Shown: positions 1-17,842, counted from the stretch's first letter. The stretch is DNA of 17,842 nt from a virus (UHGV-1912862), one strand, 5' to 3'. Translations and numbers: made by a program. Notes: generated by a model from the sequence alone, not told the origin.

Positions 1-2400
1 GAAGCCTTCGGGAAGCTGACCACAGACCCGACGTCGGGGCTGACGGCGATGGCGCGCCAGTTCCATAACGTGACGGCGGAGCAGATTGCGTATGTTGCTC
101 AGTTGCAGCGTTCCGGCGATGAAGCCGGGGCATTGCAGGCGGCGAACGAGGCCGCAACGAAAGGGTTTGATGACCAGACCCGCCGCCTGAAAGAGAACAT
201 GGGCACGCTGGAGACCTGGGCAGACAGGACTGCGCGGGCATTCAAATCCATGTGGGATGCGGTGCTGGATATTGGTCGTCCTGATACCGCGCAGGAGATG
301 CTGATTAAGGCAGAGGCTGCGTTTAAGAAAGCAGACGACATCTGGAATCTGCGCAAGGATGATTATTTTGTTAACGATGAAGCGCGGGCGCGTTACTGGG
401 ATGACCGTGAAAAGGCCCGTCTTGCGCTTGAAGCCGCCCGAAAGAAGGCTGAGCAGCAGACTCAACAGGACAAAAATGCGCAGCAGCAGAGCGATACCGA
501 AGCGTCACGGCTGAAATATACCGAAGAGGCGCAGAAGGCTTACGAACGCCTGCAGACACCGCTGGAGAAATATACCGCCCGCCAGGAGGAACTGAATAAG
601 GCACTGAAAGACGGAAAAATCCTGCAGGCAGATTACAACACGCTGATGTCGGCGGCGAAAAAGGACTATGAAGCGACGCTGAAAAAGCCGAAGCAGTCCG
701 GCGTGAAAGTGTCTGCGGGCGATCGTCAGGAAGACAGTGCTCATGCTGCCCTGCTGACGCTTCAGGCAGAACTCCGGACACTGGAGAAGCATGCCGGAGC
801 GAATGAGAAAATCAGCCAGCAGCGCCGGGATTTGNNNNNNNNNNGCTGCAGACGCCGCTGGAGAAATATACCGCCCGTCAGGAAGAACTGAATAAGGCCC
901 TGAAAGACGGAAAAATCCTGCAGGCAGATTACAACACGCTGATGGCGGCGGCGAAAAAGGACTATGAAGCGACACTGAAAAAGCCGAAACAGTCCGGCGT
1001 GAAGGTGTCTGCAGGAGAGCGTCAGGAAGACAGTGCTCATGCCGCCCTGCTGACGCTTCAGGCAGAACTCCGGACGCTGGAGAAGCATGCCGGAGCGAAT
1101 GAGAAAATCAGCCAGCAGCGCCGGGATTTGTGGAAGGCGGAAAGTCAGTTCGCGGTACTGGAGGAGGCGGCGCAACGTCGCCAGCTGTCCGCACAGGAGA
1201 AATCCCTGCTGGCGCATAAAGATGAGACGCTGGAGTACAAACGCCAGCTGGCTGCACTTGGCGATAAGGTCACGTATCAGGAGCACCTGAACGCGCTGGC
1301 GCAGCAGGCGGATAAATTCGCACAGCAGCAACGGGCAAAACGGGCCGCCATTGATGCGAAAAGCCGGGGGCTGACTGACCGGCAGGCAGCGAAGGAAGCC
1401 ACGGAACAGCGCCTGAAGGAGGAGTATGGCGATAATCCGCTGGCGCTGAATAACGTCATGTCAGAGCAGAAAAAGACCTGGGCGGCTGAAGACCAGCTTC
1501 GCGGGAACTGGATGGCAGGCCTGAAGTCCGGCTGGAGTGAGTGGGAAGAGAGCGCCACGGANNNNNNNNNNAAAAAACCGGGGGCTGACTGACCGGCAGG
1601 CAGCGCGGGAAGCCACGGAACAGCGCCTGAAGGAACAGTATGGCGATAATTCTCTGGCGCTGAATAACGTCATGTCAGAGCAGAAAAAGACCTGGGCGGC
1701 TGAAGGCCAGCTTCGCGGGAGCTGGATGGCAGGCCTGAAGTCCGGCTGGAGTGAGTGGGAAGAGAGCGCCACGGACAGTATGTCGCAGGTAAAAAGTGCA
1801 GCCACGCAGACCTTTGATGGCATTGCACAGAATATGGCGGCGATGCTGACCGGCAGTGAGCAGAACTGGCGCAGCTTCACCCGTTCCGTGCTGTCCATGA
1901 TGACAGAAATTCTGCTTAAGCAGGCAATGGTGGGGATTGTCGGGAGTATCGGCAGCGTCATTGGCGGTGCTGCCGGTGGTGGCGCATCAGTGTCAGGCGG
2001 TACAGCCATTCAGGCCGCTGCGGCGAAATTCCATTTTGCGACCGGAGGATTTACGGGAACCGGCGGCAAATATGAGCCAGCGGGGATTGTTCACCGTGGT
2101 GAATTTGTCTTCACGAAGGAGGCAACCAGCCGGATTGGCGTAGGAAATCTTTACCGGCTGATGCGCGGCTATGCCACCGGTGGTTATGTCGGTGGCACCG
2201 GAAGTCCGGCGCAAATGCGGCGTTCAGAGGGTATCAGATTTGAGCAGAACAACAACGTGGTGATTCAGAACGACGGTACGAATGGTCTGCCAGGTCCACA
2301 GATGCTGAAGGCAGTGTATGACATGGCCCGCAAGGGTGCCCGTGATGAAATTCAGGCACAGATGCGCGATGGTGGTCTGTTCTCCGGAGGTGGACGATGA
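1..2400 (+). CDS. H: Tail tape-measure protein (lambda gpH-like), 5'-truncated by the window; frame broken by scaffold joins at 835-844 and 1562-1571
   Basis: Frame is open from nt 1. Translation is Ala/Gln/Lys-rich and coiled-coil-like with a Gly-rich segment (GGAAGGGASVSGG). Stop TGA 2398-2400 overlaps the M start (ATGA). Sits directly upstream of M-L-K-I-J. Confidence 0.9.
835..844. other. Scaffold join (10 N); 845-1130 re-reads about 549-834
   Basis: N-run followed by a near-identical copy with substitutions. Confidence 0.85.
1562..1571. other. Scaffold join (10 N); about 1574-1775 re-reads about 1360-1561
   Basis: N-run followed by a near-identical copy with substitutions. Confidence 0.85.
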
Positions 2401-2726
2401 AGACCTTCCGCTGGAAAGTGAAACCCGGTATGGATGTGGCTTCGGCCCCTTCCGTCAGGAAAGTGTGCTTTGGTGATGGCTATTCCCAGCGAGCGCCTGC
2501 CGGGCTGAATGCCGACCTGAAAACGTACAGCGTGACGCTTTCTGTTCCCCGTTGGGAGGCCACGGCGCTGGAGTCGTTTCTGGCTGAGCACGGGGGCTGG
2601 AAAGCCTTTCTGTGGACGCCGCCTTATGAGTGGCGGCAGATAAAGGTGACCTGCGCAAAATGGTCGTCGCGGGTCAGTATGCTGCGTGTTGAGTTCAGCG
2701 CAGAGTTTGAACAGGTGGTGAACTGA
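2397..2726 (+). CDS. M: Tail tip protein M (lambda gpM-like), 109 aa
   Basis: ORF MKTFRWKVKPGMDVASAP...EFEQVVN. GGAGG Shine-Dalgarno at 2383-2387. Stop overlaps L start (TGATG). Length and position match lambda M. Confidence 0.92.
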   Translation: MKTFRWKVKPGMDVASAPSVRKVCFGDGYSQRAPAGLNADLKTYSVTLSVPRWEATALESFLAEHGGWKAFLWTPPYEWRQIKVTCAKWSSRVSMLRVEFSAEFEQVVN

Positions 2727-3680
2727 TGCAGAATATCCGGCAGGAAACACTGAATGAATGCACCCGTGCGGAGCAGTCGGCCAGCGNNNNNNNNNNGATA
2801 TCCGGCAGGAAACACTGAATGAATGCACCCGTGCGGAGCAGTCGGCCAGCGTGGTGCTCTGGGAAATCGACCTGACAGAGGTCGGTGGAGAACGTTATTT
2901 TTTCTGTAATGAGCAGAACGAAAAAGGTGAGCCGGTCACCTGGCAGGGGCGACAGTATCAGCCGTATCCCATTCAGGGGAGCGGTTTTGAACTGAATGGC
3001 AAAGGCACCAGTACGCGCCCCACGCTGACGGTTTCTAACCTGTACGGTATGGTCACCGGGATGGCGGAAGATATGCAGAGTCTGGTCGGCGGAACGGTGG
3101 TCCGGCGTAAGGTTTACGCCCGTTTTCTGGATGCGGTGAACTTCGTCAACGGAAACAGTTACGCCGATCCGGAGCAGGAGGTGATCAGCCGCTGGCGCAT
3201 TGAGCAGTGCAGCGAACTGAGCGCGGTGAGTGCCTCCTTTGTACTGTCCACGCCGACGGAAACGGATGGCGCTGTTTTTCCGGGACGTATCATGCTGGCC
3301 AACACCTGCACCTGGACCTATNNNNNNNNNNCTTCGTCAACGGAAACAGCGACGCCGATCCGGAGCAGGAGGTGATCAGTCGCTGGCGCATCGAGCAGTG
3401 CAGCGAACTGAGCGCGGTCAGTGCCTCCTTTGTACTGTCCACACCGACGGAAACGGACGGCGCTGTTTTTCCGGGACGTATCATGCTGGCCAACACCTGC
3501 ACCTGGACCTATCGCGGTGACGAGTGCGGTTATAGCGGTCCGGCTGTCGCGGATGAATATGACCAGCCAACGTCCGATATCACGAAGGATAAATGCAGCA
3601 AATGCCTGAGCGGTTGTAAGTTCCGCAATAACGTCGGCAACTTTGGCGGCTTCCTTTCCATTAACAAACTTTCGCAGTAA
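2726..3680 (+). CDS. L: Tail tip protein L (lambda gpL-like); contains two scaffold joins (2787-2796, 3322-3331) with re-read blocks, true length about 232 aa
   Basis: Translation MQNIRQETLNECTRAEQSASVVLWEIDLTEVGGERYFFCNEQ... ending with a Cys cluster (RGDECGY...DKCSKCLSGCKF) as in gpL. After subtracting the re-reads the length is about 700 nt. Confidence 0.92.
2787..2796. other. Scaffold join (10 N); 2798-2851 re-reads 2733-2786
   Basis: N-run followed by a near-identical copy. Confidence 0.85.
3322..3331. other. Scaffold join (10 N); 3332-3512 re-reads 3141-3321
   Basis: N-run followed by a near-identical copy with substitutions. Confidence 0.85.
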
Positions 3681-3684
3681 TCCC

Positions 3685-4428
3685 ATGACAGAGACAGAAT
3701 CAGCGATTCTGGCGCACGCCCGGCGATGTGCGCCAGCGGAGTCGTGCGGCTTCGTGGTAAGCACGCCGGAGGGGGAAAGATATTTCCCCTGCGTGAATAT
3801 CTCCGGTGAGCCGGAGGCGTATTTCCGTATGTCGCCGGAAGACTGGCTGCAGGCAGAAATGCAGGGTGAGATTGTGGCGCTGGTCCACAGCCACCCCGGT
3901 GGTCTGCCCTGGCTGAGTGAGGCCGACCGGCGGCTGCAGGTGCAGAGTGATTTGCCGTGGTGGCTGGTCTGCCGGGGGACGATTCATAAGTTCCGCTGTG
4001 TGCCGCATCTCACCGGGCGGCGCTTTGAGCACGGTGTGACGGACTGTTACACACTGTTCCGGGATGCTTATCATCTGGCGGGGATTGAGATGCCGGACTT
4101 TCATCGTGAGGATGACTGGTGGCGTAACGGCCAGAATCTCTATCTGGATAATCTGGAGGCCACAGGGCTGTATCAGGTGCCGTTGTCATCAGCACAACCG
4201 GGCGATGTGCTGCTGTGCTGTTTTGGTTCATCGGTGCCGAATCATGCCGCCATTTACTGTGGTGATGGCGAGCTGCTGCACCATATTCCTGAACAACTGA
4301 GCAAACGAGAGAGGTACACCGACAAATGGCAGCGACGCACACACACCCTCTGGCGTCACCGGGCATGGCGCGCATCTGCCTTTACGGGGATTTACAACGA
4401 TTTGGCCGCCGCATCGACCTTCGTGTGA
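3685..4428 (+). CDS. K: Tail tip assembly protein K (JAMM/MPN plus NlpC/P60-like), 247 aa; alternative internal start at 3829 would give 199 aa
   Basis: ATG at 3685 (MTETESAILAHARR...). JAMM motif HSHPGGLPWLSEAD (HxHx7Sx2D) and downstream Cys/His consistent with NlpC/P60. Its 3' end overlaps the I start out of frame by about 100 nt. Confidence 0.9.
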   Translation: MTETESAILAHARRCAPAESCGFVVSTPEGERYFPCVNISGEPEAYFRMSPEDWLQAEMQGEIVALVHSHPGGLPWLSEADRRLQVQSDLPWWLVCRGTIHKFRCVPHLTGRRFEHGVTDCYTLFRDAYHLAGIEMPDFHREDDWWRNGQNLYLDNLEATGLYQVPLSSAQPGDVLLCCFGSSVPNHAAIYCGDGELLHHIPEQLSKRERYTDKWQRRTHTLWRHRAWRASAFTGIYNDLAAASTFV

Positions 4429-5155
4429 AAACGGGGGCTGAAGCCATCCGGGCACTGGCCACACAGCTCCCGGCGTTTCGTCAGAAACTGTGCGACGGCT
4501 GGTATCAGGTACGGATTGCCGGGCGGGACGTCAGCACGTCCGGGTTAACGGCGCAGTTACATGAGACTCTGCCTGATGGCGCTGTGATTCATATTGTTNN
4601 NNNNNNNNCGCACTGGCCACACAGCTCCCGGCGTTTCGTCAGAAACTGAGCGACGGCTGGTATCAGGTACGGATTGCCGGGCAGGATGTCAGCACGTCCG
4701 GATTAACGGCGCAGTTACATGAGACTCTGCCTGATGGCGCTGTGATTCATATTGTTCCCAGAGTCGCCGGGGCCAAGTCAGGTGGTGTATTCCAGATTGT
4801 CCTGGGAGCAGCCGCCATTGCCGGATCATTCTTTACCGCCGGAGCCACCCTTGCAGCATGGGGGGCAGCCATTGGGGCCGGTGGTATGACCGGCATCCTG
4901 TTTTCTCTCGGTGCCAGTATGGTGCTCGGTGGTGTGGCGCAGATGCTGGCACCGAAAGCCCGGACGCCCACAGCGACCAGCACGGATAACGGTAAGCAGA
5001 ACACGTATTTCTCTTCACTGGATAACATGGTTGCCCAGGGCAATGTTCTGCCTGTTCTGTACGGTGAAATGCGCGTGGGGTCACGCGTGGTTTCTCAGGA
5101 GATCAGCACGGCAGACGAAGGGGATGGTGGTCAGGTTGTGGTGATTGGTCGCTGA
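4326..5155 (+). CDS. I: Tail tip assembly protein I (lambda gpI-like); contains scaffold join 4599-4608 and a re-read, true length about 222 aa
   Basis: MAATHTHPLASPGMARICLYGDLQRFGRRIDLRVKTGAEAIRALATQLPAFRQK... followed by a Gly/Ala-rich hydrophobic C-terminal half ...GDGGQVVVIGR. Stop TGA 5153-5155. Confidence 0.9.
4599..4608. other. Scaffold join (10 N); 4609-4756 re-reads 4451-4598
   Basis: N-run followed by a near-identical copy with substitutions. Confidence 0.85.
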
Positions 5156-5173
5156 TGCAAAATGTTTTATGTG

Positions 5174-5199
5174 AAACCGCCTCCGGGCGGTTTTGTCGT
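5174..5199 (+). promoter_or_regulatory. Perfect 8-bp hairpin (AAACCGCC-tccg-GGCGGTTT) followed by a T-rich tract in the I-J intergenic spacer; possible attenuator or RNA-stability element
   Basis: Inverted repeat read directly from the sequence. A second copy with the same stem and loop tgcg lies at 6064-6089 in the re-read block. Confidence 0.35.
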
Positions 5200-5215
5200 T
5201 TATGGAGCGTGAGGA

Positions 5216-5665
5216 ATGGGTAAAGGCAGCAGTAAGGGGCATACCCCGCGCGAAGCAAAGGACAACCTGAAGTCCACGCAGCTGCTGAGTGTGATCGATG
5301 CCATCAGTGAAGGGCCGATTGAAGGTCCGGTGGATGGATTAAAAAGCGTGCTGCTGAACAGTACGCCGGTGCTGGACAGTGAGGGGAATGCCAATATATC
5401 CGGCGTCACGGTGGTGTTCCGGGCAGGTGAGCAGGAGCAGACTCCGCCGGAGGGGGTTGAATCCTCCGGTTCCGAGACGGTGCTGGGTACGGAAGTGAAA
5501 TATGACACGCCGATCACCCGCACCATCACGTCGGCAAACATCGACCGTCTGCGCTTTACCTTCGGTGTGCAGGCACTGGTGGAAACCACCTCAAAGGGGG
5601 ACAGGAATCCATCGGAAGTCCGCCTGCTGGTTCAGATACAGCGTAACGGTGGCTGGGTGACGGAA
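5216..5665 (+). CDS. J: Host-specificity protein J, 5' fragment (first allele copy, cut by scaffold join 5666-5675)
   Basis: MGKGSSKGHTPREAKDNLKSTQLLSVIDAISEGPIEGPVDGLK... is about 96 percent identical to 6106-6555. GAGG Shine-Dalgarno at 5211-5214. Confidence 0.8.
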
Positions 5666-5675
5666 NNNNNNNNNN
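5666..5675. other. Scaffold join (10 N); 5676-6555 re-reads 4786-5665 (I 3' end, I-J spacer, J 5' end)
   Basis: N-run followed by an 880-nt diverged copy at constant offset 890. Confidence 0.85.
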
Positions 5676-6045
5676 CGTATTCCAGATTGTCCTGGGAGCT
5701 GCCGCCATTGCCGGATCATTCTTTACTGCCGGAGCCACCCTTGCAGCATGGGGGGCAGCCATTGGGGCCGGTGGTATGACCGGCATCCTGTTTTCTCTCG
5801 GTGCCAGTATGGTGCTCGGTGGTGTGGCGCAGATGCTGGCACCGAAAGCCAGAACTCCCCGTACACAGATAACGGATAACGGCAAACAAAACACCTATTT
5901 CTCCTCACTGGATAACATGGTTGCCCAGGGCAATGTTCTGCCCGTTCTGTTCGGTGAAATGCGCGTGGGGTCACGTGTGGCATCTCAGGAGATCAGTACA
6001 GCTGATGAAGGTGATGGTGGTGAAATCGTGGTGATTGGTCGCTGA
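5676..6045 (+). CDS. I: Tail assembly protein I, 3' fragment (second allele copy; re-read of 4786-5155 with substitutions)
   Basis: Encodes ...APKARTPRTQITDNGKQNTYFSSLDNMVAQGNVLPVLFGEMRVGSRVASQEISTADEGDGGEIVVIGR, against TPTATSTDNG...YGEM...GQVVVIGR in copy one. Confidence 0.8.
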
Positions 6046-6105
6046 TGGAACATGTTTTATATGAAACCGCCTGCGGGCGGTTTTGTCGTTTATGGAGCAT
6101 GAGGA

Positions 6106-11127
<5,022 letters not shown>

Positions 11128-11146
11128 ATTTTATAACCCATATACG

Positions 11147-11172
11147 GGCACCAGAAATGGTGCCTTTTTTTT
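11147..11172 (+). terminator. Rho-independent terminator after J (GGCACCA-gaaa-TGGTGCC then T8)
   Basis: 7-bp GC-rich stem, GAAA tetraloop and T8 run, 20 nt after the J stop. Confidence 0.65.
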
Positions 11173-11193
11173 GCAGAAAAGCGAGAGGTAATT

Positions 11194-11730
11194 ATGCGTA
11201 AATTATGTGCTGTTATTCTGTCCACAGTAGTCTGGCTGGTCGCCGCTGGTACGCCAGCGAGCGCAGCAGAGCATCAGTCCACACTAAGCGCCGGGTATCT
11301 TCAGACCCATACTGATATGCCCGGCAACGATGACCTGAAGGGCATTAACGTGAAATACCGTTATGAATTTACGGACACGCTGGGGCTGGTGACGTCATTC
11401 AGTTATGCCAATGCCAAAGATGAGCAAAAAACGCATTACAGCGATACCCGCTGGCATGAAGATTCAGTGCGTAACCGCTGGTTCAGCATGATGGCGGGGC
11501 CGTCTGTACGCGTGAATGAATGGTTCAGTGCTTATGCGATGGCAGGTGTGGCTTACAGCCGTGTTTCGACGTTCTCCGGGGATTATCTCCGCGTAACTGA
11601 CAACAAGGGGAAAACGCACGATGTGCTGACCGGAAGTGATGACGATCGCCACAGCAACACGTCTCTGGCGTGGGGAGCTGGCGTGCAGTTTAACCCGACC
11701 GAATCCGTGGCCATTGATATTGCTTATGAA
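11194..11730 (+). CDS. lom: Lom-family outer membrane protein (Ail/OmpX/Lom beta-barrel), allele copy A, 3' end lost at scaffold join 11731-11740
   Basis: MRKLCAVILSTVVWLVAAGTPASAAEHQSTLSAGYLQTHTDMPGNDDLKGINVKYRYEFTDTLG... Signal peptide plus beta-strand pattern. GAGAGG Shine-Dalgarno at 11183-11188. Confidence 0.8.
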
Positions 11731-11740
11731 NNNNNNNNNN
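11731..11740. other. Scaffold join (10 N); 11741-12332 re-reads about 11140-11730 (terminator plus lom)
   Basis: N-run followed by a diverged copy; the lom signal-peptide region differs markedly. Confidence 0.85.
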
Positions 11741-11747
11741 CAATACG

Positions 11748-11771
11748 GGCGCCAGAAATGGCGCCTTTTTT
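11748..11771 (+). terminator. Second copy of the post-J terminator (GGCGCCA-gaaa-TGGCGCC then T6) inside the re-read block
   Basis: Same hairpin as 11147-11172 with G-C/A-T compensatory changes in the stem. Confidence 0.5.
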
Positions 11772-11795
11772 ATTGCAGAAAAGCGAGAGGTAATT

Positions 11796-12395
11796 ATGCG
11801 TAAAGTTTATGCAGCCATTTTGTCCGCAGCCATCTGTCTGGCCGTATCCGGTGCGCCTGCATGGGCATCTGAGCAGCAGGCCACACTGAGCGCAGGGTAT
11901 CTTCATGCCCGTACGAACGCTCCCGGCAGCGATAATCTGAACGGGATTAACGTGAAATACCGTTATGAGTTTACGGACACGCTGGGGCTGATTACGTCAT
12001 TCAGTTATGCCAACGCTGAAGATGAGCAAAAAACGCATTACAGCGATACCCGCTGGCATGAGGATTCCGTGCGTAACCGCTGGTTCAGCGTGATGGCGGG
12101 ACCGTCTGTGCGCGTGAATGAATGGTTCAGCGCGTATGCGATGGCGGGGGTGGCTTACAGCCGTGTTTCGACCTTCTCCGGGGATTATCTGCAGGTGACC
12201 GACAACAAGGGGAAAACGCACGATGTGCTGACCGGAAGTGATGACGGTCGCCACAGCAACACGTCTCTGGCGTGGGGGGCTGGCGTGCAGTTTAACCCGA
12301 CCGAATCCGTGGCCATTGATATTGCTTATGAAGGCTCCGGCAGTGGCGACTGGCGCACTGACGGTTTCATCGTGGGTGTCGGTTATAAATTCTGA
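11796..12395 (+). CDS. lom: Lom-family outer membrane protein, allele copy B, complete, 199 aa
   Basis: MRKVYAAILSAAICLAVSGAPAWASEQQATLSAGYLHARTNAPGSDNLNGINVKYRYEFTDTLGLITSFSYANAEDEQKTHYSDTRWHEDSVRNRWF...GFIVGVGYKF. C-terminal aromatic residue typical of OMP barrels. Confidence 0.9.
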   Translation: MRKVYAAILSAAICLAVSGAPAWASEQQATLSAGYLHARTNAPGSDNLNGINVKYRYEFTDTLGLITSFSYANAEDEQKTHYSDTRWHEDSVRNRWFSVMAGPSVRVNEWFSAYAMAGVAYSRVSTFSGDYLQVTDNKGKTHDVLTGSDDGRHSNTSLAWGAGVQFNPTESVAIDIAYEGSGSGDWRTDGFIVGVGYKF

Positions 12396-12422
12396 TTAGC
12401 CAGGTAACACAGTGTTATGACA

Positions 12423-12449
12423 GCCCGCCGGTTCAGGCGGGCTTTTTTG
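12423..12449 (+). terminator. Rho-independent terminator after lom (GCCCGCC-ggttcag-GGCGGGC then T6)
   Basis: 7-bp GC stem and T-run, directly followed by GGAG (12451-12454) and the stf ATG at 12460. Confidence 0.65.
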
Positions 12450-12459
12450 TGGAGTGGAT

Positions 12460-14817
12460 ATGGCAGCAGTAAAAATCTCAGGTGTGCTGAAAGATGGTGC
12501 GGGAAAACCAATACAGAACTGCACTATTCAACTGAAGGCAAAGCGTAACAGCACCACTGTACTGGTGAACACGGTGGCCTCTGAAAATCCGGATGAAGCC
12601 GGGCGTTACAGCATGGACGTTGAGTATGGCCAGTATAGCGTTATCCTGCTGGTTGAAGGTTTTCCGCCTTCACATGCCGGGATCATTACCGTCTATGAAG
12701 GTTCCAGACCAGGTACGCTGAATGATTTTCTCGGTGCCATGACGGAAGATGATGTCATGCCGGAGGCATTGCGTCGTTTTGAGGCAATGGTGGAAGAAGC
12801 GGCACGCAACGCCGAAGCCGCCTCTCAGAGCGCAGCGGTGGCAAAGAAATCCGAAACTGCAGCGGCATCATCGAAGAACGCGGCGAAAACCTCAGAAACG
12901 AATGCAGCTAACAGCGCACAGGCGGCAGCGTCCTCGCAGACTGCATCGGCAAACTCCGCGACAGCAGCCAAAAAATCAGAAACCAACGCGAAAAACAGCG
13001 AGACAGCCGCAAAGACGAGCGAAACCAACGCAAAGTCCAGCCAGACGGCAGCGAAGACCAGCGAAACGAATGCCAAAGCCAGTGAAACTGCGGCAAAAAA
13101 CAGCCAGGTTGCAGCAGCCCAAAGCGAGAGCGCGGCAGCCGGTTCTGCGACTTCAGCAGCTGGATCAGCAACTGCTGCGGCTAACAGCCAGAAAGCTGCG
13201 AAGACGAGTGAAACTAACGCAAAGTCCAGCCAGACGGCAGCGAAGACCAGCGAAACGAATGCCAAAGCCAGCGAAACTGCGGCGAAAAGCAGTCAGGATG
13301 CAGCAGCCGAAAGCGAGAGTGCTGCAGCTGGTTCTGCAACAGCGGCAGCTAATAGCCAAAAAGCTGCAAAAACCAGTGAAACTAACGCAAAGGCGAGCGA
13401 AACAAAAGCAGCAGCCAGCGAGACAGAAGCAACGTCAGCCGCAACAAGAGCAGAGAATGCAGCCCGGATTGCAGAAGATGCCGCTGATCCTGCTTCTGTC
13501 CCTCCGCTTCCTGATATCTGGCTACCCTTGAATGATTCTCTGGAAGCGATAACAGGGTATGCGCCGGGGTATAAAACAATAACCATCGGCAGCGATGAAA
13601 TCACTGTGCCAGTTAATGGCATATGCCAATTTAGCCGGGCTTCATCTGCAACGTATATTGATAAGTCCGGGCATATTACCGTGGCAGGTAATAACGTTCC
13701 TCGTTTTGAAAAATATGGTTTGCTGATAGAGAATCAGCGAACAAACATGTTCGTAAATAGTTTTAATCCTGATGCGTGGAATAAAAGCGGTGGTATATCT
13801 GTAACATCATCAACAGATGAATTTGAGTTTAAATATGGACGTTTCACGGTAGGAAGCGATATAGCAGGAACGACAACAGGGAGAAATATATGCACAGTTG
13901 CTGGTAACAAAGGCATAGATGTGACTGGCGATGATCAGTACAGTAAAGGTCCGTATGTTACCGCGTCGTTCAGGGTAAGAAGTGATCTCAATGTTCGCGC
14001 ACGTATCCGTTTTGAACGGTATAACTCGGAAGGATACACCTTCCTTTGCGACGCCTATTTGTCATTACAGACCCATGAACTACAAATTACTGGTGGCAAT
14101 GCCCAGCTATTAACAGCAAACTTTGAAATCGACCCTGGTAGTGGATGGATATATTTTCAGGCAACACTGAAATGTCTGCCAGAATGGGGAATGGTTGGTA
14201 CGCAGCTGCAAATTGCAGCCGACAGAGCTGTGGGAGCTTTTGCAACAGGTGACTGGATAGAAGTAACCACCCCGCAATTCGAGTATGGTGCTTGTGCAAC
14301 TTCCTTCATCATAACGACAACAGAGCCAGCGACTCGTGCATCAGATTTATGTAAATTTCCGCTGATGAAAAATATGTATACCATGCCTTTTACGTTCATG
14401 GTGGAAGTCCATAAAAACTGGTTTATTTCTCATAATGCTGCACCGCGTGTCATTGATTCAGAAAATCACCAGTCCGGAGGCCCATTTATTATGGGGTTTG
14501 GTTCTTCTGGAACTATCAGTCAGGACGGTTATTCGTATTGCGATATAGGCGGGGCTAACCGACGTGTATATGAATCATGCGGAGTAAGGGATCTCGTTAT
14601 GGGATTCAGGGTTAAGGCTGACGGCATGACATGCTCATTTGCAAATAAGCATATAAGCGCTGAAACAAAAACAGTATGGAAATATATTCGTGAAGCAGCC
14701 GTGATTCGTATCGGGGGGCAAACGACGACAGGATTACGACACCTTAATGGTCATATAAAAAACCTCCGTTTCTGGAACAGAGCATTGTCAGATACGCAGC
14801 TTAAGGAATACGTATAA
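12460..14817 (+). CDS. stf: Side tail fibre protein Stf: conserved N-terminal attachment domain, Ala/Ser/Thr-rich repeat shaft, AT-rich C-terminal receptor-binding domain with a LamG-like terminal motif
   Basis: From ATG 12460: MAAVKISGVLKDGAGKPIQNCTIQLKAKRNSTTVLVNTVASENPDEAGRYSMDVEYGQYSVIL... (lambdoid Stf N-terminus). Repeats KTSETNAK(A/S)S(E/Q)TAAK. C-terminus ...GHIKNLRFWNRALSDTQLKEYV. The ORF-track start at 12454 is GTG; I prefer ATG 12460. Confidence 0.85.
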   Translation: MAAVKISGVLKDGAGKPIQNCTIQLKAKRNSTTVLVNTVASENPDEAGRYSMDVEYGQYSVILLVEGFPPSHAGIITVYEGSRPGTLNDFLGAMTEDDVMPEALRRFEAMVEEAARNAEAASQSAAVAKKSETAAASSKNAAKTSETNAANSAQAAASSQTASANSATAAKKSETNAKNSETAAKTSETNAKSSQTAAKTSETNAKASETAAKNSQVAAAQSESAAAGSATSAAGSATAAANSQKAAKTSETNAKSSQTAAKTSETNAKASETAAKSSQDAAAESESAAAGSATAAANSQKAAKTSETNAKASETKAAASETEATSAATRAENAARIAEDAADPASVPPLPDIWLPLNDSLEAITGYAPGYKTITIGSDEITVPVNGICQFSRASSATYIDKSGHITVAGNNVPRFEKYGLLIENQRTNMFVNSFNPDAWNKSGGISVTSSTDEFEFKYGRFTVGSDIAGTTTGRNICTVAGNKGIDVTGDDQYSKGPYVTASFRVRSDLNVRARIRFERYNSEGYTFLCDAYLSLQTHELQITGGNAQLLTANFEIDPGSGWIYFQATLKCLPEWGMVGTQLQIAADRAVGAFATGDWIEVTTPQFEYGACATSFIITTTEPATRASDLCKFPLMKNMYTMPFTFMVEVHKNWFISHNAAPRVIDSENHQSGGPFIMGFGSSGTISQDGYSYCDIGGANRRVYESCGVRDLVMGFRVKADGMTCSFANKHISAETKTVWKYIREAAVIRIGGQTTTGLRHLNGHIKNLRFWNRALSDTQLKEYV
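13031..13400 (+). repeat. Imperfect in-frame tandem repeats (about 170-190 nt units) within the stf shaft
   Basis: caaagtccagccagacggcagcgaagaccagcgaaacgaatgccaaagcc recurs at 13031 and 13220. Shorter KTSETNAK motifs span about 12890-13400. Confidence 0.6.
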
Positions 14818-15086
14818 TGCGAGATATAACATTACGATTCGATAACAGAGAACAGTTTAACGCAATTGTATATGACAGTGGCCTGTTCAGTCTTGAAGAA
14901 GAAAACGGGGTTCTTGTTGATGTTATTGGCTGCATTATCGATTACGAGGAGCCAGAAAACGAAAGATGTACAGGCATTGATCGCGGTGGTTTTTTCGTAA
15001 ACATGAGGATTGTTGATAGCAGTAAAAACATATCTTCTTTAATGCCTTTCATTACGACAGATCAGCATGTAAGGACATGGGCTTAA
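14817..15086 (+). CDS. Hypothetical small acidic protein (89 aa), translationally coupled to stf (TAATG overlap)
   Basis: ATG 14817 overlaps the stf stop. AT-rich like its neighbours. No motif recognised: MRDITLRFDNREQFNAIVYDSGLFSLEEENGVLVDVIGCIIDYEEPENERC... Confidence 0.5.
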   Translation: MRDITLRFDNREQFNAIVYDSGLFSLEEENGVLVDVIGCIIDYEEPENERCTGIDRGGFFVNMRIVDSSKNISSLMPFITTDQHVRTWA

Positions 15087-15098
15087 TGGAGTAAGACA

Positions 15099-16139
15099 AT
15101 GGTTACAAAAACAGTAATTCCTGATGACATCAAAACGCTAAAATCCGATGTTAGTAAACTAAAAACTGATCAAGGAAGCTATGCAACAAAATCATATGTA
15201 GACAATAAAACAACATGGAATAGTTATTGCAATGTAATCTATGATCAAAAGGCATTGCCGACCACTGGAACTATATTTAGCGGTAAGATTCACTTGTCAA
15301 ATAAGACAGGAGAAACCGAAAACGCTTATAGTGAGATGTACACCAGAAAAAATATTGACGGTACAAAAGATACAATGACAAGGATTGTCACACACAATGG
15401 AACAAAAGGTATCTTTTGGGATTTTAGCGATCTTTACGGCGGAACATTAATTTTTCCAGGCAGTGATGGTTACCTTAAGATGGGGAACTGTCTCATGTCG
15501 TATGGTGTGCGGGGAAGTAACGCGCTTATTAAGTTTGACTGCACAGACACATTACAAATCAAATATGCCAATCATGGGTCAACCATGACATTAAACACAC
15601 AGGGGACCGCTCATTCTGGCGCTACTACTAGTTTGTGGGGTAACTCTACCCGTCCGGTTGTATATGAAGTTGGTGCTGATGGTGGCGCGTATATGTTCTA
15701 TGCGCAGAAAAATACCGATAACACCTATATGTTAAGCGTTAATGGTGCATGTCATGCCACCGCATTTAACCAGCATTCCGACCGGGATCTGAAAGACAAC
15801 ATTCAGGTGATCGATAATGCAACCGACCGCATCCGTAAAATGAACGGCTATACATACACGCTTAAAGAAAACGGTATGCCCTATGCAGGTGTCATTGCAC
15901 AGGAAGCTCTGGAAGCAATCCCAGAAGTTGTCGGTTCCGCAATGAAATATCAGGACGGTGCAAGCGGATCGGAAGGTGAAGAAGGTGAACGTTATTACAC
16001 AGTAGATTATTCTGGTGTTACTGGCTTGCTTGTTCAGGTAGCCAGAGAGTCAGACGACAGAATAACAGTACTGGAAGAAGAAAACGCAGAATTAAGGCAA
16101 AGATTATCTGCAATTGAGGCGACGCTTGCGTCTAAATAA
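15099..16139 (+). CDS. Tail fibre/tailspike-like protein with C-terminal intramolecular chaperone (peptidase S74 / endosialidase-chaperone-type) domain, 346 aa
   Basis: GGAGTAAG Shine-Dalgarno before ATG 15099. C-terminal region ...NQHSDRDLKDNIQVIDNATDRIRKMNGYTYTLKE..YAGVIAQEALEAIPEVV...LEEENAELRQRLSAIEATL carries the SDxxLK and G(V/F)IAQE hallmarks plus a terminal coiled coil. AT-rich. Confidence 0.75.
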   Translation: MVTKTVIPDDIKTLKSDVSKLKTDQGSYATKSYVDNKTTWNSYCNVIYDQKALPTTGTIFSGKIHLSNKTGETENAYSEMYTRKNIDGTKDTMTRIVTHNGTKGIFWDFSDLYGGTLIFPGSDGYLKMGNCLMSYGVRGSNALIKFDCTDTLQIKYANHGSTMTLNTQGTAHSGATTSLWGNSTRPVVYEVGADGGAYMFYAQKNTDNTYMLSVNGACHATAFNQHSDRDLKDNIQVIDNATDRIRKMNGYTYTLKENGMPYAGVIAQEALEAIPEVVGSAMKYQDGASGSEGEEGERYYTVDYSGVTGLLVQVARESDDRITVLEEENAELRQRLSAIEATLASK

Positions 16140-16180
16140 TATTAAGGGCTATGCGCCCCGTTTTATTGGGTAGGATGAAA

Positions 16181-16474
16181 ATGGATATAACACCTTTTCT
16201 TCATGCGCTTTGTGCTGTGGCTGCGCAGGTACTGGTTGGTCTTTTTACCGGAAACTGGGCTTACGGGGCGATAGCCGGTTGTACATTCTTCATTGCGCGG
16301 GAACACACCCAGGCAGAATATCGCTGGATTGAAATGTTCGGGCATTGCAAGCGGATTAACATGCCGTGGTGGGGCGGTTTTGATCCGCGTGTTTGGGATG
16401 TGGCAAGCCTGATAGATTTTGCTGTGCCGGTGGTGGCGTGTCTGCTGGTCTGGCTGTTGGTTAATCGTGGGTGA
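16181..16474 (+). CDS. Small polytopic inner-membrane protein (about 97 aa, three hydrophobic segments), function unknown
   Basis: AGGA at 16172-16175 then ATG 16181 (the ORF track begins at 16151). Hydrophobic stretches FLHALCAVAAQVLVGLFTG, AYGAIAGCTFFIA, LIDFAVPVVACLLVWLLV. G+C is host-like, unlike the upstream cassette. Confidence 0.5.
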   Translation: MDITPFLHALCAVAAQVLVGLFTGNWAYGAIAGCTFFIAREHTQAEYRWIEMFGHCKRINMPWWGGFDPRVWDVASLIDFAVPVVACLLVWLLVNRG

Positions 16475-16484
16475 AAAAAGGTGA

Positions 16485-16604
16485 GCTGTATATGCAACGG
16501 AGGAAGAAATCTCGTTGCTGGAAGCATGGAAAAAGTATCGGGTATTGCTGAACCGTGTTGATACGTCAACTGCACAGGATATTGAATGGCCAGCACTGCC
16601 GTAG
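16485..16604 (+). pseudogene. tfa: 3' remnant of a tail fibre assembly gene (tfa); only the last ~40 codons remain
   Basis: Frame-3 translation [39 protein letters not shown]-stop matches the conserved Tfa C-terminus (..[33 protein letters not shown]..). An in-frame stop lies at 16482-16484 and there is no start codon. Confidence 0.7.
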
Positions 16605-16701
16605 GGTAAAACATATAAATTCTATAATTAGATGTATCTTTCCATTTACGGCAAGGAAGGGGGCTTGGAAGACGTAAAGCATCTCACACCGAGATTATTT
16701 T

Positions 16702-17292
16702 TTATATGTCAGGTGTCTGAAGTTTTGCTTTGGCTCTTAAAATGGTTTGCCGCGAGGTTTTGAATTCCCGGGCAATGGCACTTATACTTACACCTGACTT
16801 AATTCGTTCGAATACCACCTGTTTCTGTTCTTCATTTAACACAGGTGGTCGACCAAAACGTTTCCCTGCGCCGCGGGCTCTTACTATCCCGGAATGAGTG
16901 CGTTCAAGTAAAAGGTCTCGTTCAAATTCAGCGACTGCTGAAATTACTTGCATCATCATTTTTCCTGTTGGACTGGTCAGGTCAATGCCCCCCAATGCTA
17001 AGCAATGCACTCTGATACCTGTTTCGGTCAGTTGTTCCACTGTTTTCCTGATATCCATTGCATTACAACCAAGGCGATCCAGTTTTGTCACAATCAATTG
17101 ATCACCACATTTCAGGCGAGCAAGCAACCGGTTAAAACCAGGACGCTCACTGGTTGCTGCTGAGCCGCTAATGTGTTCTTCGATTATTTGCTGAGATTTG
17201 ATGTTAAAACCTGCACTTTCGATTTCCCGGCGTTGATTTTCGGTGGTCTGATCCAGCGTTGATATCCGACAGTAAGCAAAAATTCGAGACAT
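16702..17292 (-). CDS. pin: Serine recombinase of the DNA-invertase family (Pin/Gin/Hin-like), 196 aa
   Basis: [20 protein letters not shown]... has the resolvase/invertase N-terminal catalytic motif (Ser11) and a C-terminal HTH ([21 protein letters not shown]). Position after stf/tfa and length 196 aa match the PinR/PinQ arrangement of Rac/Qin prophages as I recall it. Confidence 0.88.
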
Positions 17293-17608
17293 AGTGAGAC
17301 TCTATACGAAATTGGTGTTCATATCATAATGCATCTCAGAAAATAATTATGATTATTTTTGTGCATATTTGTATGTACACGTTCGAAAATAAACGAATGC
17401 GTATGCAACCCCGTAATTTTGGTGAGACCCAAAATCGATTTTGTGAAAAATGGCTTTAACTCGGTTTGTTTTTCGAGTTCCGGGAGGACTCAAGGAAGAA
17501 GAATAGTGTTGCGTGTTATTTTAACCAGATTTCAAGTTGTTTGGTCGTGGAAAAGTGGAGCAAAATGTTGTTAAAGTGGAAAAATGATAAAAAAGTAAGT
17601 TTATTATA

Positions 17609-17842
17609 TTACATTTTACCATTTAAATTTTGGTTGTCTTTAAGAACTGATATCGCTGTTTGTAATAATTCTTTGTTATCCAGCCATGATTTTTTCTTTA
17701 TGTTTCCTTCAATGTAATCAAGCAATGTTCTGGTATTGATAGGTCTTCCCTGTTTTGCTACTTCCACTACAGCATCCCCTAGGATAATTCTTACTTCAGG
17801 AAGCTGCGCAGGGAACCACTTTAGGGTGTCTTTTGATTTCAT
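17609..17842 (-). CDS. Small protein (77 aa), YdfK/YnaE-like by synteny with pin
   Basis: Complete ORF MKSKDTLKWFPAQLPEVRIILGDAVVEVAKQGRPINTRTLLDYIEG...; the start codon coincides with the window edge. AT-rich. The identity rests on recalled Rac/Qin gene order (pin next to ynaE/ydfK), not on a search. Confidence 0.5.
   Translation of the reverse strand: MKSKDTLKWFPAQLPEVRIILGDAVVEVAKQGRPINTRTLLDYIEGNIKKKSWLDNKELLQTAISVLKDNQNLNGKM

Follow-up and report, generated by a model that had tools for sequence, protein, structure and literature searches.

Apparent tail-gene duplications in a lambda-like viral scaffold as an assembly artefact derived from two related prophages

Gene content of the window

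The window, a stretch of 17,842 nt from a virus (UHGV-1912862), carries a series of tail genes on its plus strand. The first is the C-terminal part of the tape measure gene H (1..2400), whose colinear counterpart in Escherichia coli MS20659 is annotated in RefSeq as 'phage tail tape measure protein'. It is followed by the minor tail protein genes M (2397..2726; 109 aa, intact, with a Pfam Phage_min_tail match in related loci) and L (2726..3680), by K (3685..4428), which encodes a 247-aa protein with JAB and NlpC/P60 peptidase matches and is intact within segment 4, by the tail assembly protein gene I (4425..6045), and by J (5216..11127), which encodes the tail tip host-specificity protein. H is broken by joins 0 and 1 of the series described below, L by joins 2 and 3, I by join 4, and J by joins 5-10; the 3' end of I is present twice, as a Y copy ending at 5155 and an X copy ending at 6045, and so is the 5' end of J. 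An exact look-up of the K protein returned three contigs, none of which contains Ns.

The gene lom is represented by a truncated X-type copy (11194-11730) and by a full-length open reading frame (11796-12395) that is Y-type up to 12332. In an exact-protein look-up the full-length frame proved to be a common natural protein, and the reading frame of lom that crosses the join had no exact match on record. Downstream lies a single-copy tract of X type without joins (12333..17842, plus strand), 100.00% identical to MS20659 over 5,510 nt. Annotation by way of MS20659 places stf at 12460-14817 in this tract, which also holds an 89-aa open reading frame, a gene for a 346-aa tail-fibre protein, a 97-aa open reading frame, a tfa remnant, and, on the minus strand, an invertase-type recombinase gene (16702-17292) and ydfK (17609-17842). 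Inverted repeats that would mark an invertible segment beside the invertase gene were sought downstream and gave weak matches only.

Twelve joins and the overlaps that flank them

The tail genes are interrupted by twelve N-runs, each of exactly 10 nt, as the initial annotation had counted. It had also described a diverged re-read after each run, and stretches of 54-879 nt do recur there at 88.5-100% identity: at all twelve joins the end of the upstream segment overlaps the start of the downstream one, the first copy reaching the last base before the Ns and the second resuming zero to two bases after them, so that the 10-nt run is the sole thing that separates the copies in every pair. Compared with each other by BLAST, the copies give E-values of 1e-24 to 0, far outside chance. 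Ten overlaps are ungapped, that of join 5 contains two gaps in the BLAST alignment, and that of join 11 a 1-nt indel. The scattered substitutions attributed to the re-reads are present in eleven overlaps, but the 54 nt shared at join 2 have no internal substitution.

The copies can be assigned to two types, defined by a prophage of E. coli MS20659 (type X) and a prophage of E. coli 23AR0806 (type Y). Each of the 11 polymorphic overlaps pairs a copy that matches the former at 100% identity with one that matches the latter at 100%. The copies at each join thus equal two different real prophages, and the window is a chimera of two related prophages. Across the window and the two references there are 788 variable sites, at 784 of which the window has the X or the Y allele and at 4 of which it has a private base. 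The mismatches between arms number 28, 16 and 106 at codon positions 1, 2 and 3, respectively, a third-position bias that indicates natural alleles rather than read errors, and the X and Y arms are alleles, not paralogues.

All twelve joins lie on the plus strand, and they fall in exactly the genes that the initial annotation had named as affected. Two are in H. At join 0 (550..1130) the X copy (550-834) is followed by Ns at 835-844 and by the Y copy (845/846-1130); the 285-nt overlap is 95.4% identical with 13 mismatches, copy 1 being 100% identical to MS20659 and copy 2 to 23AR0806, the end of copy 1 lying 54 nt beyond the last SNP, and base 845 being the first SNP. Join 1 (1359..1775) has X at 1359-1561, Ns at 1562-1571 and Y at 1572/1573-1775 (203 nt, 9 mismatches, 95.6% identity). 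Join 2 (2732..2851), at the 5' end of L, is a single-SNP bubble: A at 2732 followed by 54 nt, Ns at 2787-2796, then G at 2797 followed by the identical 54 nt (100%), so that the sole difference is the base in front of each copy and that of the second copy is the first base after the Ns. Join 3 (3141..3512), also in L, has X at 3141-3321, Ns at 3322-3331 and Y at 3332-3512 (181 nt, 7 mismatches, 96.1%).

Join 4 (4452..4756), in I, has X at 4452-4598, Ns at 4599-4608 and Y at 4609/4610-4756 (147 nt, 4 mismatches, 97.3%). Join 5 (4787..6555) spans the 3' end of I, the intergenic sequence and the 5' end of J, with Y at 4787-5665, Ns at 5666-5675 and X at 5676/5677-6555 (879 nt, 93.2%), and yields two stops of I (5155 and 6045) and two starts of J (5216 and 6106). 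Of the two divergent I peptides reported earlier, TPTATSTDNG occurs at 4964-4993 and TPRTQITDNG at 5854-5883.

Within J, join 6 (7291..8021) has X at 7291-7650, Ns at 7651-7660 and Y at 7661/7662-8021 (360 nt, 95.0%), with 17 of its 18 mismatches at third codon positions. The next four joins have the Y arm first: join 7 (8028..8212) with Y at 8028-8114, Ns at 8115-8124 and X at 8125/8126-8212 (87 nt, 5 mismatches, 94.3%); join 8 (8249..9119) with Y at 8249-8678, Ns at 8679-8688 and X at 8689/8690-9119 (430 nt, 24 mismatches, 94.4%); join 9 (9510..9961) with Y at 9510-9730, Ns at 9731-9740 and X at 9741-9961 (221 nt, 16 mismatches, 92.8%); and join 10 (10010..10968), in the C-terminal part of J, with Y at 10010-10483, Ns at 10484-10493 and X at 10494/10495-10968 (474 nt, 88.6%). 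Join 11 (11142..12332) covers the J-lom spacer and lom, with X at 11142-11730, Ns at 11731-11740 and Y at 11741/11743-12332 (589 and 590 nt, 88.5%); translation bears out the earlier remark that the N-termini of the two lom copies differ at many residues. The order of arms is accordingly X then Y at joins 0, 1, 3, 4, 6 and 11, and Y then X at joins 5, 7, 8, 9 and 10.

A 54-nt rule at the segment boundaries

The boundaries of the copies are not arbitrary. At 11 of the 12 joins the upstream segment runs on for exactly 54 nt past the last X/Y difference, the exception being join 8, where the first arm ends only 7 nt past the last SNP. At 10 of the 12, sequence resumes after the Ns directly at an X/Y SNP, the first to follow 56-127 identical nt; the exceptions are joins 3 and 9, where the second arm begins 18 nt and 13 nt, respectively, ahead of the first SNP, although the rule for the end holds at join 3. 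A further discriminating site is available at 11 joins, and at 10 of them it lies at least 59 nt downstream (50 nt at join 8); ahead of the first SNP, the two types are identical over 55 nt or more in 11 of the 12 (46 nt at join 9). Both the start and the end rule hold at nine joins, joins 1 and 4 among them, and one is broken at joins 3, 8 and 9, at which the identical stretch measures just 55, 50 and 46 nt. A constant of 54 nt, that is, k-1 for k = 55, indicates that the copies represent paired arms of de Bruijn-graph bubbles, written serially within a scaffold, rather than arbitrary overlapping contigs. The initial annotation had proposed concatenation of overlapping contigs from related prophages, of which the chimera stands and the nature of the pieces is refined by this rule to bubble arms. 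A bubble caused by a single SNP, such as that of join 2, would normally be popped by an assembler, which, like the deviations at joins 3, 8 and 9, counts against this reading.

Collapse of the overlaps and comparison with closed genomes

Collapsing the overlaps, the check that had been proposed with the initial annotation, removes 4,042 nt and leaves 13,800 nt (13,800 or 13,801 by either way of collapsing) with single open frames. The products of M, L, K, I, J, lom and stf are then 109, 232, 247, 190, 1131, 199 and 785 aa long, equal to those of MS20659; L, I, J and lom are each single and intact with lambda-like lengths, and H reads without a stop through 629 codons from base 1. The entire window maps colinearly to 13,801 nt of the closed MS20659 genome. 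In 78 closed E. coli genomes, 80% or more of the window is covered at a single location; the duplications are absent from the genomes listed with full coverage, in which the region is about 13.8 kb long.

These comparisons bear on the possibility that the window contains twelve physical, diverged local tandem duplications in tail genes, the Ns being short unsequenced stretches. Such a reading has only the tandem arrangement of the copies in its favour, and divergence after duplication cannot yield copies 100% identical to two natural prophages of unrelated strains. In addition, all twelve junctions are 10-N runs subject to the 54-nt rule, every affected reading frame is broken, and extra length is found in none of the 78 closed genomes, the best matches having 13.8 kb. 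The probability of physical duplication is accordingly close to nil, and the earlier preference for a chimeric assembly over tandem duplication is upheld by the identity of the arms with two real prophages and by the closed genomes. Physical duplication can be regarded as effectively refuted already.

A probable scaffold of serial bubble arms

The twelve 'duplications' are therefore not real DNA but an ordinary scaffolding artefact, and it is highly probable (about 95%) that the window is a k = 55 short-read de Bruijn scaffold of two related lambda-like prophage tail regions, in which the alternative arms were placed serially and joined by 10 Ns. Wherever X and Y are identical over at least 54 nt, their k-mers would merge into one path; where differences cluster more closely than 54 nt, a bubble consisting of an X arm and a Y arm would be left unresolved. 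Both arms would be linked by mate pairs to the same neighbours and assigned one estimated position, and the scaffolder would place them consecutively; the estimated gap not being positive, its minimum gap of 10 N would be written. The product would be shared sequence, arm 1, NNNNNNNNNN, arm 2 and shared sequence, twelve times over, and the serial arms would swell 13.8 kb to 17.8 kb, breaking H, L, I, J and lom. Large clusters of SNPs between the X and Y references, such as that at 3759-4345, occur only once in the window; either the two prophages of the sample are identical there or the bubble model is incomplete.

From the boundaries we infer both the logic of the scaffolder and the type of assembler. 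Velvet stores node sequences without their first k-1 bases and writes no gap shorter than 10 N. The second arm opens with no shared bases where it begins at the first variant base, as it does at 10 of the 12 joins, the first arm ends with k-1 shared bases, and all 12 gaps are 10 N, a pattern that would match the conventions of Velvet. A literature search for its 10-N minimum gap found no useful support. SPAdes was also considered; its adjoining edges overlap by K = 55 bases on either side, which predicts that arm 1 would close and arm 2 open with 55 shared bases each, not the observed 54 and 0, and it was rejected on this reasoning.

Alternatively, as the initial annotation literally worded it, contigs may have been concatenated: assembled apart, ordered manually or with external software against a reference phage or genome, and strung together with a fixed 10-N spacer, the overlaps being untrimmed ends of contigs that derive from different prophages. 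Simple concatenation would also give a fixed 10-N spacer and end-to-end overlaps, and the order of the segments is exactly that of the reference. A contig from a de Bruijn assembler begins and ends with the shared k-1 or k bases. The asymmetry of the window, in which the second arm opens at the first SNP at 10 of 12 joins and the first arm keeps 54 bases, points to joining inside the assembler graph and makes pasting of separate contigs improbable. Pasted contigs would belong to the same class of artefact, with the same consequences.

Sites typed along the segments were at first read as repeated switching between X and Y within segments. That reading was weakened by the occurrence of the 'Y-like' stretch of the 3' end of H and M together with X arms in the natural prophages L007, L010 and L012, and by the match of the X path to L007 in one alignment at 99.81% identity. 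Switching inside segments may occur wherever X and Y share 54 nt or more.

Origin of the two prophage types

The serial-arm scaffold could have been built from a sample in which X and Y came either from one genome or from two. A metagenome or a contaminated culture in which two E. coli strains were mixed, rather than one genome with two prophages, is a serious candidate, though held at rather less than even odds. Near relatives of both types are present in human-gut metagenome assemblies, and the closed Y-type genome of 23AR0806 has only a single region of this sort. A related gut-metagenome contig (ENA UOJP01001146.1) is without Ns. On the other side, E. coli genomes that match the window carry a median of 3 and a maximum of 14 such regions, and the X type adjoins ydfK/dinI/prfC and the Y type sitABCD, such that one chromosome could hold both. 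The lack of joins in the X-specific downstream 5.5 kb is uninformative about origin, because Y diverges there.

More tentatively, X and Y may be two lambdoid prophages of one E. coli chromosome that have been homogenised patchwise by gene conversion, the C-terminus of J and lom remaining most divergent (88%); stretches present once would then alternate with blocks of 5-12% divergence for this reason. If so, the artefact has accidentally recorded the block structure of inter-prophage recombination within one genome.

Consequences and comparison with known systems

Read literally, the window would show I, J and lom as duplicated, H, L and J as frameshifted, and the phage DNA as 4 kb longer than it is, all of which is spurious. 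Its record would yield erroneous gene calls, protein clusters and 'tail gene duplication' statistics, and some of its sequences are X/Y chimeras. The artefact itself matters only for quality control, for which the 54-nt boundary rule together with the fixed 10-N gap offers a quick, read-free test that can flag such an artefact in other scaffolds.

A de Bruijn bubble with k = 55 resembles the structure at the joins in that its arms are bounded by at least 54 bases common to both variants. It differs in that one arm is usually removed or output as a separate contig, whereas here both stand in series in one scaffold, and three joins deviate from the expected boundaries.

False heterotype duplications have as their signature duplicated overlapping contigs with an assembly gap between them and haplotype-specific variants in each (PMC2864568; PMC9516828). 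The window has a gap between copies, haplotype-specific sequence, and a single-copy gene structure that is restored by removing one copy, and it shares with the published cases adjacent allelic copies, a gap, and genes that are broken or appear in excess (Kelley & Salzberg 2010, PMC2864568; Ko et al. 2022, PMC9516828). The published cases concern the parental haplotypes of diploid vertebrates, whereas here two prophages or strains in a bacterial sample are involved and the blocks are 54-879 nt long; the published criteria include read depth and mate discordance, and those applied here are at the level of sequence.

The biology underlying the window, as predicted from its sequence, is that of an ordinary lambda-like siphovirus tail module. 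The gene order H-M-L-K-I-J-lom-stf is identical to that of lambda, RefSeq and Pfam annotations of colinear loci concur, and the protein lengths in lambda and in the collapsed window are 109 aa for M and 232 aa for L in both, 1132 versus 1131 aa for J, and 206 versus 199 aa for lom. Most pieces as far as the middle of J are 90-100% identical to lambda DNA, but the C-terminus of J, lom and the side tail fibre genes are 81-89% identical over partial alignments, or unmatched. Unlike that of lambda, the tail module here is located in an E. coli prophage adjoining ydfK.

Redundancy at the N-runs and collapse of the tail module

The window represents a tail module of the lambda type. Temperate Escherichia phages match it at about 95% identity, and matches occur in 5,261 of the 5,426 complete E. 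coli genomes, at a median of three places per genome. In the best closed genome, that of E. coli MS20659, all 17,842 nt fit in 13,801 nt, which are annotated in RefSeq with the tape measure protein (H), tail proteins M and L, a C40 peptidase (K), a tail assembly protein (I), gpJ, Lom, a side tail fibre, further tail-fibre genes, a recombinase and ydfK. Twelve N-runs, every one of 10 nt (starting at 835, 1562, 2787, 3322, 4599, 5666, 7651, 8115, 8679, 9731, 10484 and 11731; joins 0 to 11), split the window into 13 segments. When each segment was compared with the next by BLAST, the suffix of one overlapped the prefix of the other at all twelve joins, with alignments that end at the last base before the Ns and begin 0-2 bases past them (E-values 1e-24 to 0; identity 88.5-100%; gap-free in ten cases). 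The initial annotation had described a diverged re-read after each 10-nt N-run, and this is what is seen at every join, over 54-879 nt; the two differing I peptides that it cited were located at 4964-4993 and 5854-5883, and translation of the two lom copies gives N-termini that differ at many residues.

The redundant part of the window amounts to 4,042 nt, with 120 N counted in. The initial annotation had proposed collapsing the overlaps as a check for single, intact genes of lambda-like length; whether the first or the second copy is deleted at every join, 13,800 or 13,801 nt remain, with a single unbroken set of reading frames. If the copies resembling the MS20659 prophage are retained, M has 109, L 232, K 247, I 190, J 1131, Lom 199 and the side tail fibre (stf) 785 amino acids, exactly the lengths in MS20659 and near those of lambda (109, 232, 1132 and 206 amino acids for M, L, J and Lom).

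Two natural alleles

Mismatches occur in 11 of the overlaps. In each of these, one copy matches the MS20659 prophage (type X) at 100.00% identity, and the remaining copy matches, again at 100.00%, a prophage of E. coli 23AR0806 that adjoins sitABCD (type Y). The X copy is the first at joins 0, 1, 3, 4, 6 and 11 and the second at joins 5, 7, 8, 9 and 10, while the copies at join 2 differ by a single SNP. When all positions variable among the window, X and Y were typed (788 sites), 401 carried the X allele, 383 the Y allele and four were private to the window; from 12333 to its end the window is 100% X. The positions 231, 405, 461 and 2466 are the only ones that differ from both references where these agree; presumably they are variants genuinely private to the prophage or prophages sampled. 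Mismatches between copies number 28, 16 and 106 at codon positions 1, 2 and 3, a bias that identifies them as natural alleles on which purifying selection has acted, as opposed to errors of sequencing.

Twelve real tandem duplications are excluded: later divergence could not make the copies equal to two different natural prophages, an N-run lies at every junction, reading frames are disrupted, and the closed genomes lack the duplications. The proposal that the window is a chimera of related prophages or strains is supported by the collapse test, by the identity of the copies to X and Y and by the closed genomes, and the duplications are a property of the record, not of any DNA molecule. Since E. 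coli genomes typically carry several such regions, and X and Y occupy different chromosomal sites, it is plausible that the two were prophages of one genome; they may also have come from two strains.

Boundaries of the copies and a possible assembly mechanism

This interpretation can be made more precise from the boundaries of the copies. At 11 of 12 joins exactly 54 nt lie between the last mismatch of the copies and the start of the Ns, the exception being join 8 (only 7 nt). At 10 of 12 the Ns are followed directly by the first X/Y difference, ahead of which X and Y are identical for 56-127 nt. Beyond the duplicated block the next discriminating site, where one exists, is at least 59 nt away (50 nt at join 8). 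Such maximal clusters of differences, flanked by at least 54 identical bases, correspond to the bubbles of a de Bruijn graph built at k = 55 (k-1 = 54). Three joins depart from the rule: joins 3 and 9 begin 18 and 13 nt too soon, and join 8 stops too soon. The stretch shared by X and Y is only 55, 46 and 50 nt at joins 3, 9 and 8, respectively, and at these places the graph would be easily broken or not yet closed.

Both arms of a bubble, if linked by mate pairs to the same flanks, would receive identical estimated positions; a scaffolder that took both as unique would set them in series and, on obtaining a negative gap estimate, would write its minimum gap. The arms are asymmetrical, the first retaining k-1 shared bases and the second lacking the shared prefix, which matches assemblers that store a node minus its first k-1 bases. 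Velvet stores nodes in this way and has a minimum gap of 10 N; a literature search gave no confirmation of this gap or node convention. The convention of SPAdes is at odds with the asymmetry. The same asymmetry speaks against separately printed contigs having been concatenated externally along a reference, an artefact of the same class to which we assign a low probability.

Single-copy stretches

Compared with the two references, some stretches between bubbles resemble mosaics of X and Y; of the 16 apparent switches, 12 fall across X/Y-identical sequence of 54 nt or more. A Y-like stretch of the 3' end of H and M stands alongside X arms in three natural prophages (L007, L010 and L012), and the window collapsed to its X copies aligns with L007 in one piece at 99.81% identity (23 positions differ). 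From this match and these natural combinations, the backbone is in essence a natural prophage of type X into which Y arms have been inserted, with extra X/Y switching within segments being possible. Large clusters of SNPs between the references, such as 3759-4345, are present only once in the window: either the two prophages of the sample were identical there, or the second arm went to a separate contig.

The DNA of K (3685-4428) is 99.8-100% X-type, yet the exact protein is rare: in the public collection it occurs on only three contigs, two of them from Logan and one from an NCBI draft genome (GCA_018428545.1). A related contig (ENA ERZ27258237 k119_6289) resembles X up to two thirds of the way through J and Y from roughly window position 9373 onwards, including lom and the side tail fibre of 984 aa that is typical of Y. 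Either natural recombination in the host-range part of the module produced it, or it is a further chimera of assembly.

Downstream genes

Downstream of stf lies a second tail-fibre gene (15099-16139, 346 aa), which in colinear loci includes a Peptidase_S74 domain, an intramolecular chaperone. A resolvase/invertase-type recombinase (16702-17292, minus strand, 196 aa; Resolvase and HTH_7 domains in a colinear locus) adjoins a 5'-truncated tail-fibre-assembly pseudogene (approximately 16494-16604), and the pair (16494-17292) may be what is left of an invertible tail-fibre switch of the Pin/Gin kind; a search for inverted repeats near the recombinase gave only weak matches. A related prophage in CP024131.1 (locus L022) shares the Lom protein and has OspG-kinase, Cif and cdtABC-like cargo genes between the tail fibre genes and dinI/prfC (12356-17644 of that locus).

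Relation to known assembly artefacts

The prophage family also breaks other assembly pipelines: two further gut-metagenome scaffolds carry 100-N runs in the tail region, in H and near G/T (L013, 8863-8962; L015, 6893-6992). The duplication pattern offers no biological novelty, and its sole value is as a quality-control flag. With its gaps between paired copies and its allele-specific sequence it corresponds to the false heterotype duplications of Ko et al. (2022, PMC9516828), whose hallmarks include such gaps and haplotype-specific k-mers, and further half read depth and discordant pairs, and it is a bacterial, small-scale equivalent of the duplicated overlapping contigs of Kelley and Salzberg (2010, PMC2864568).
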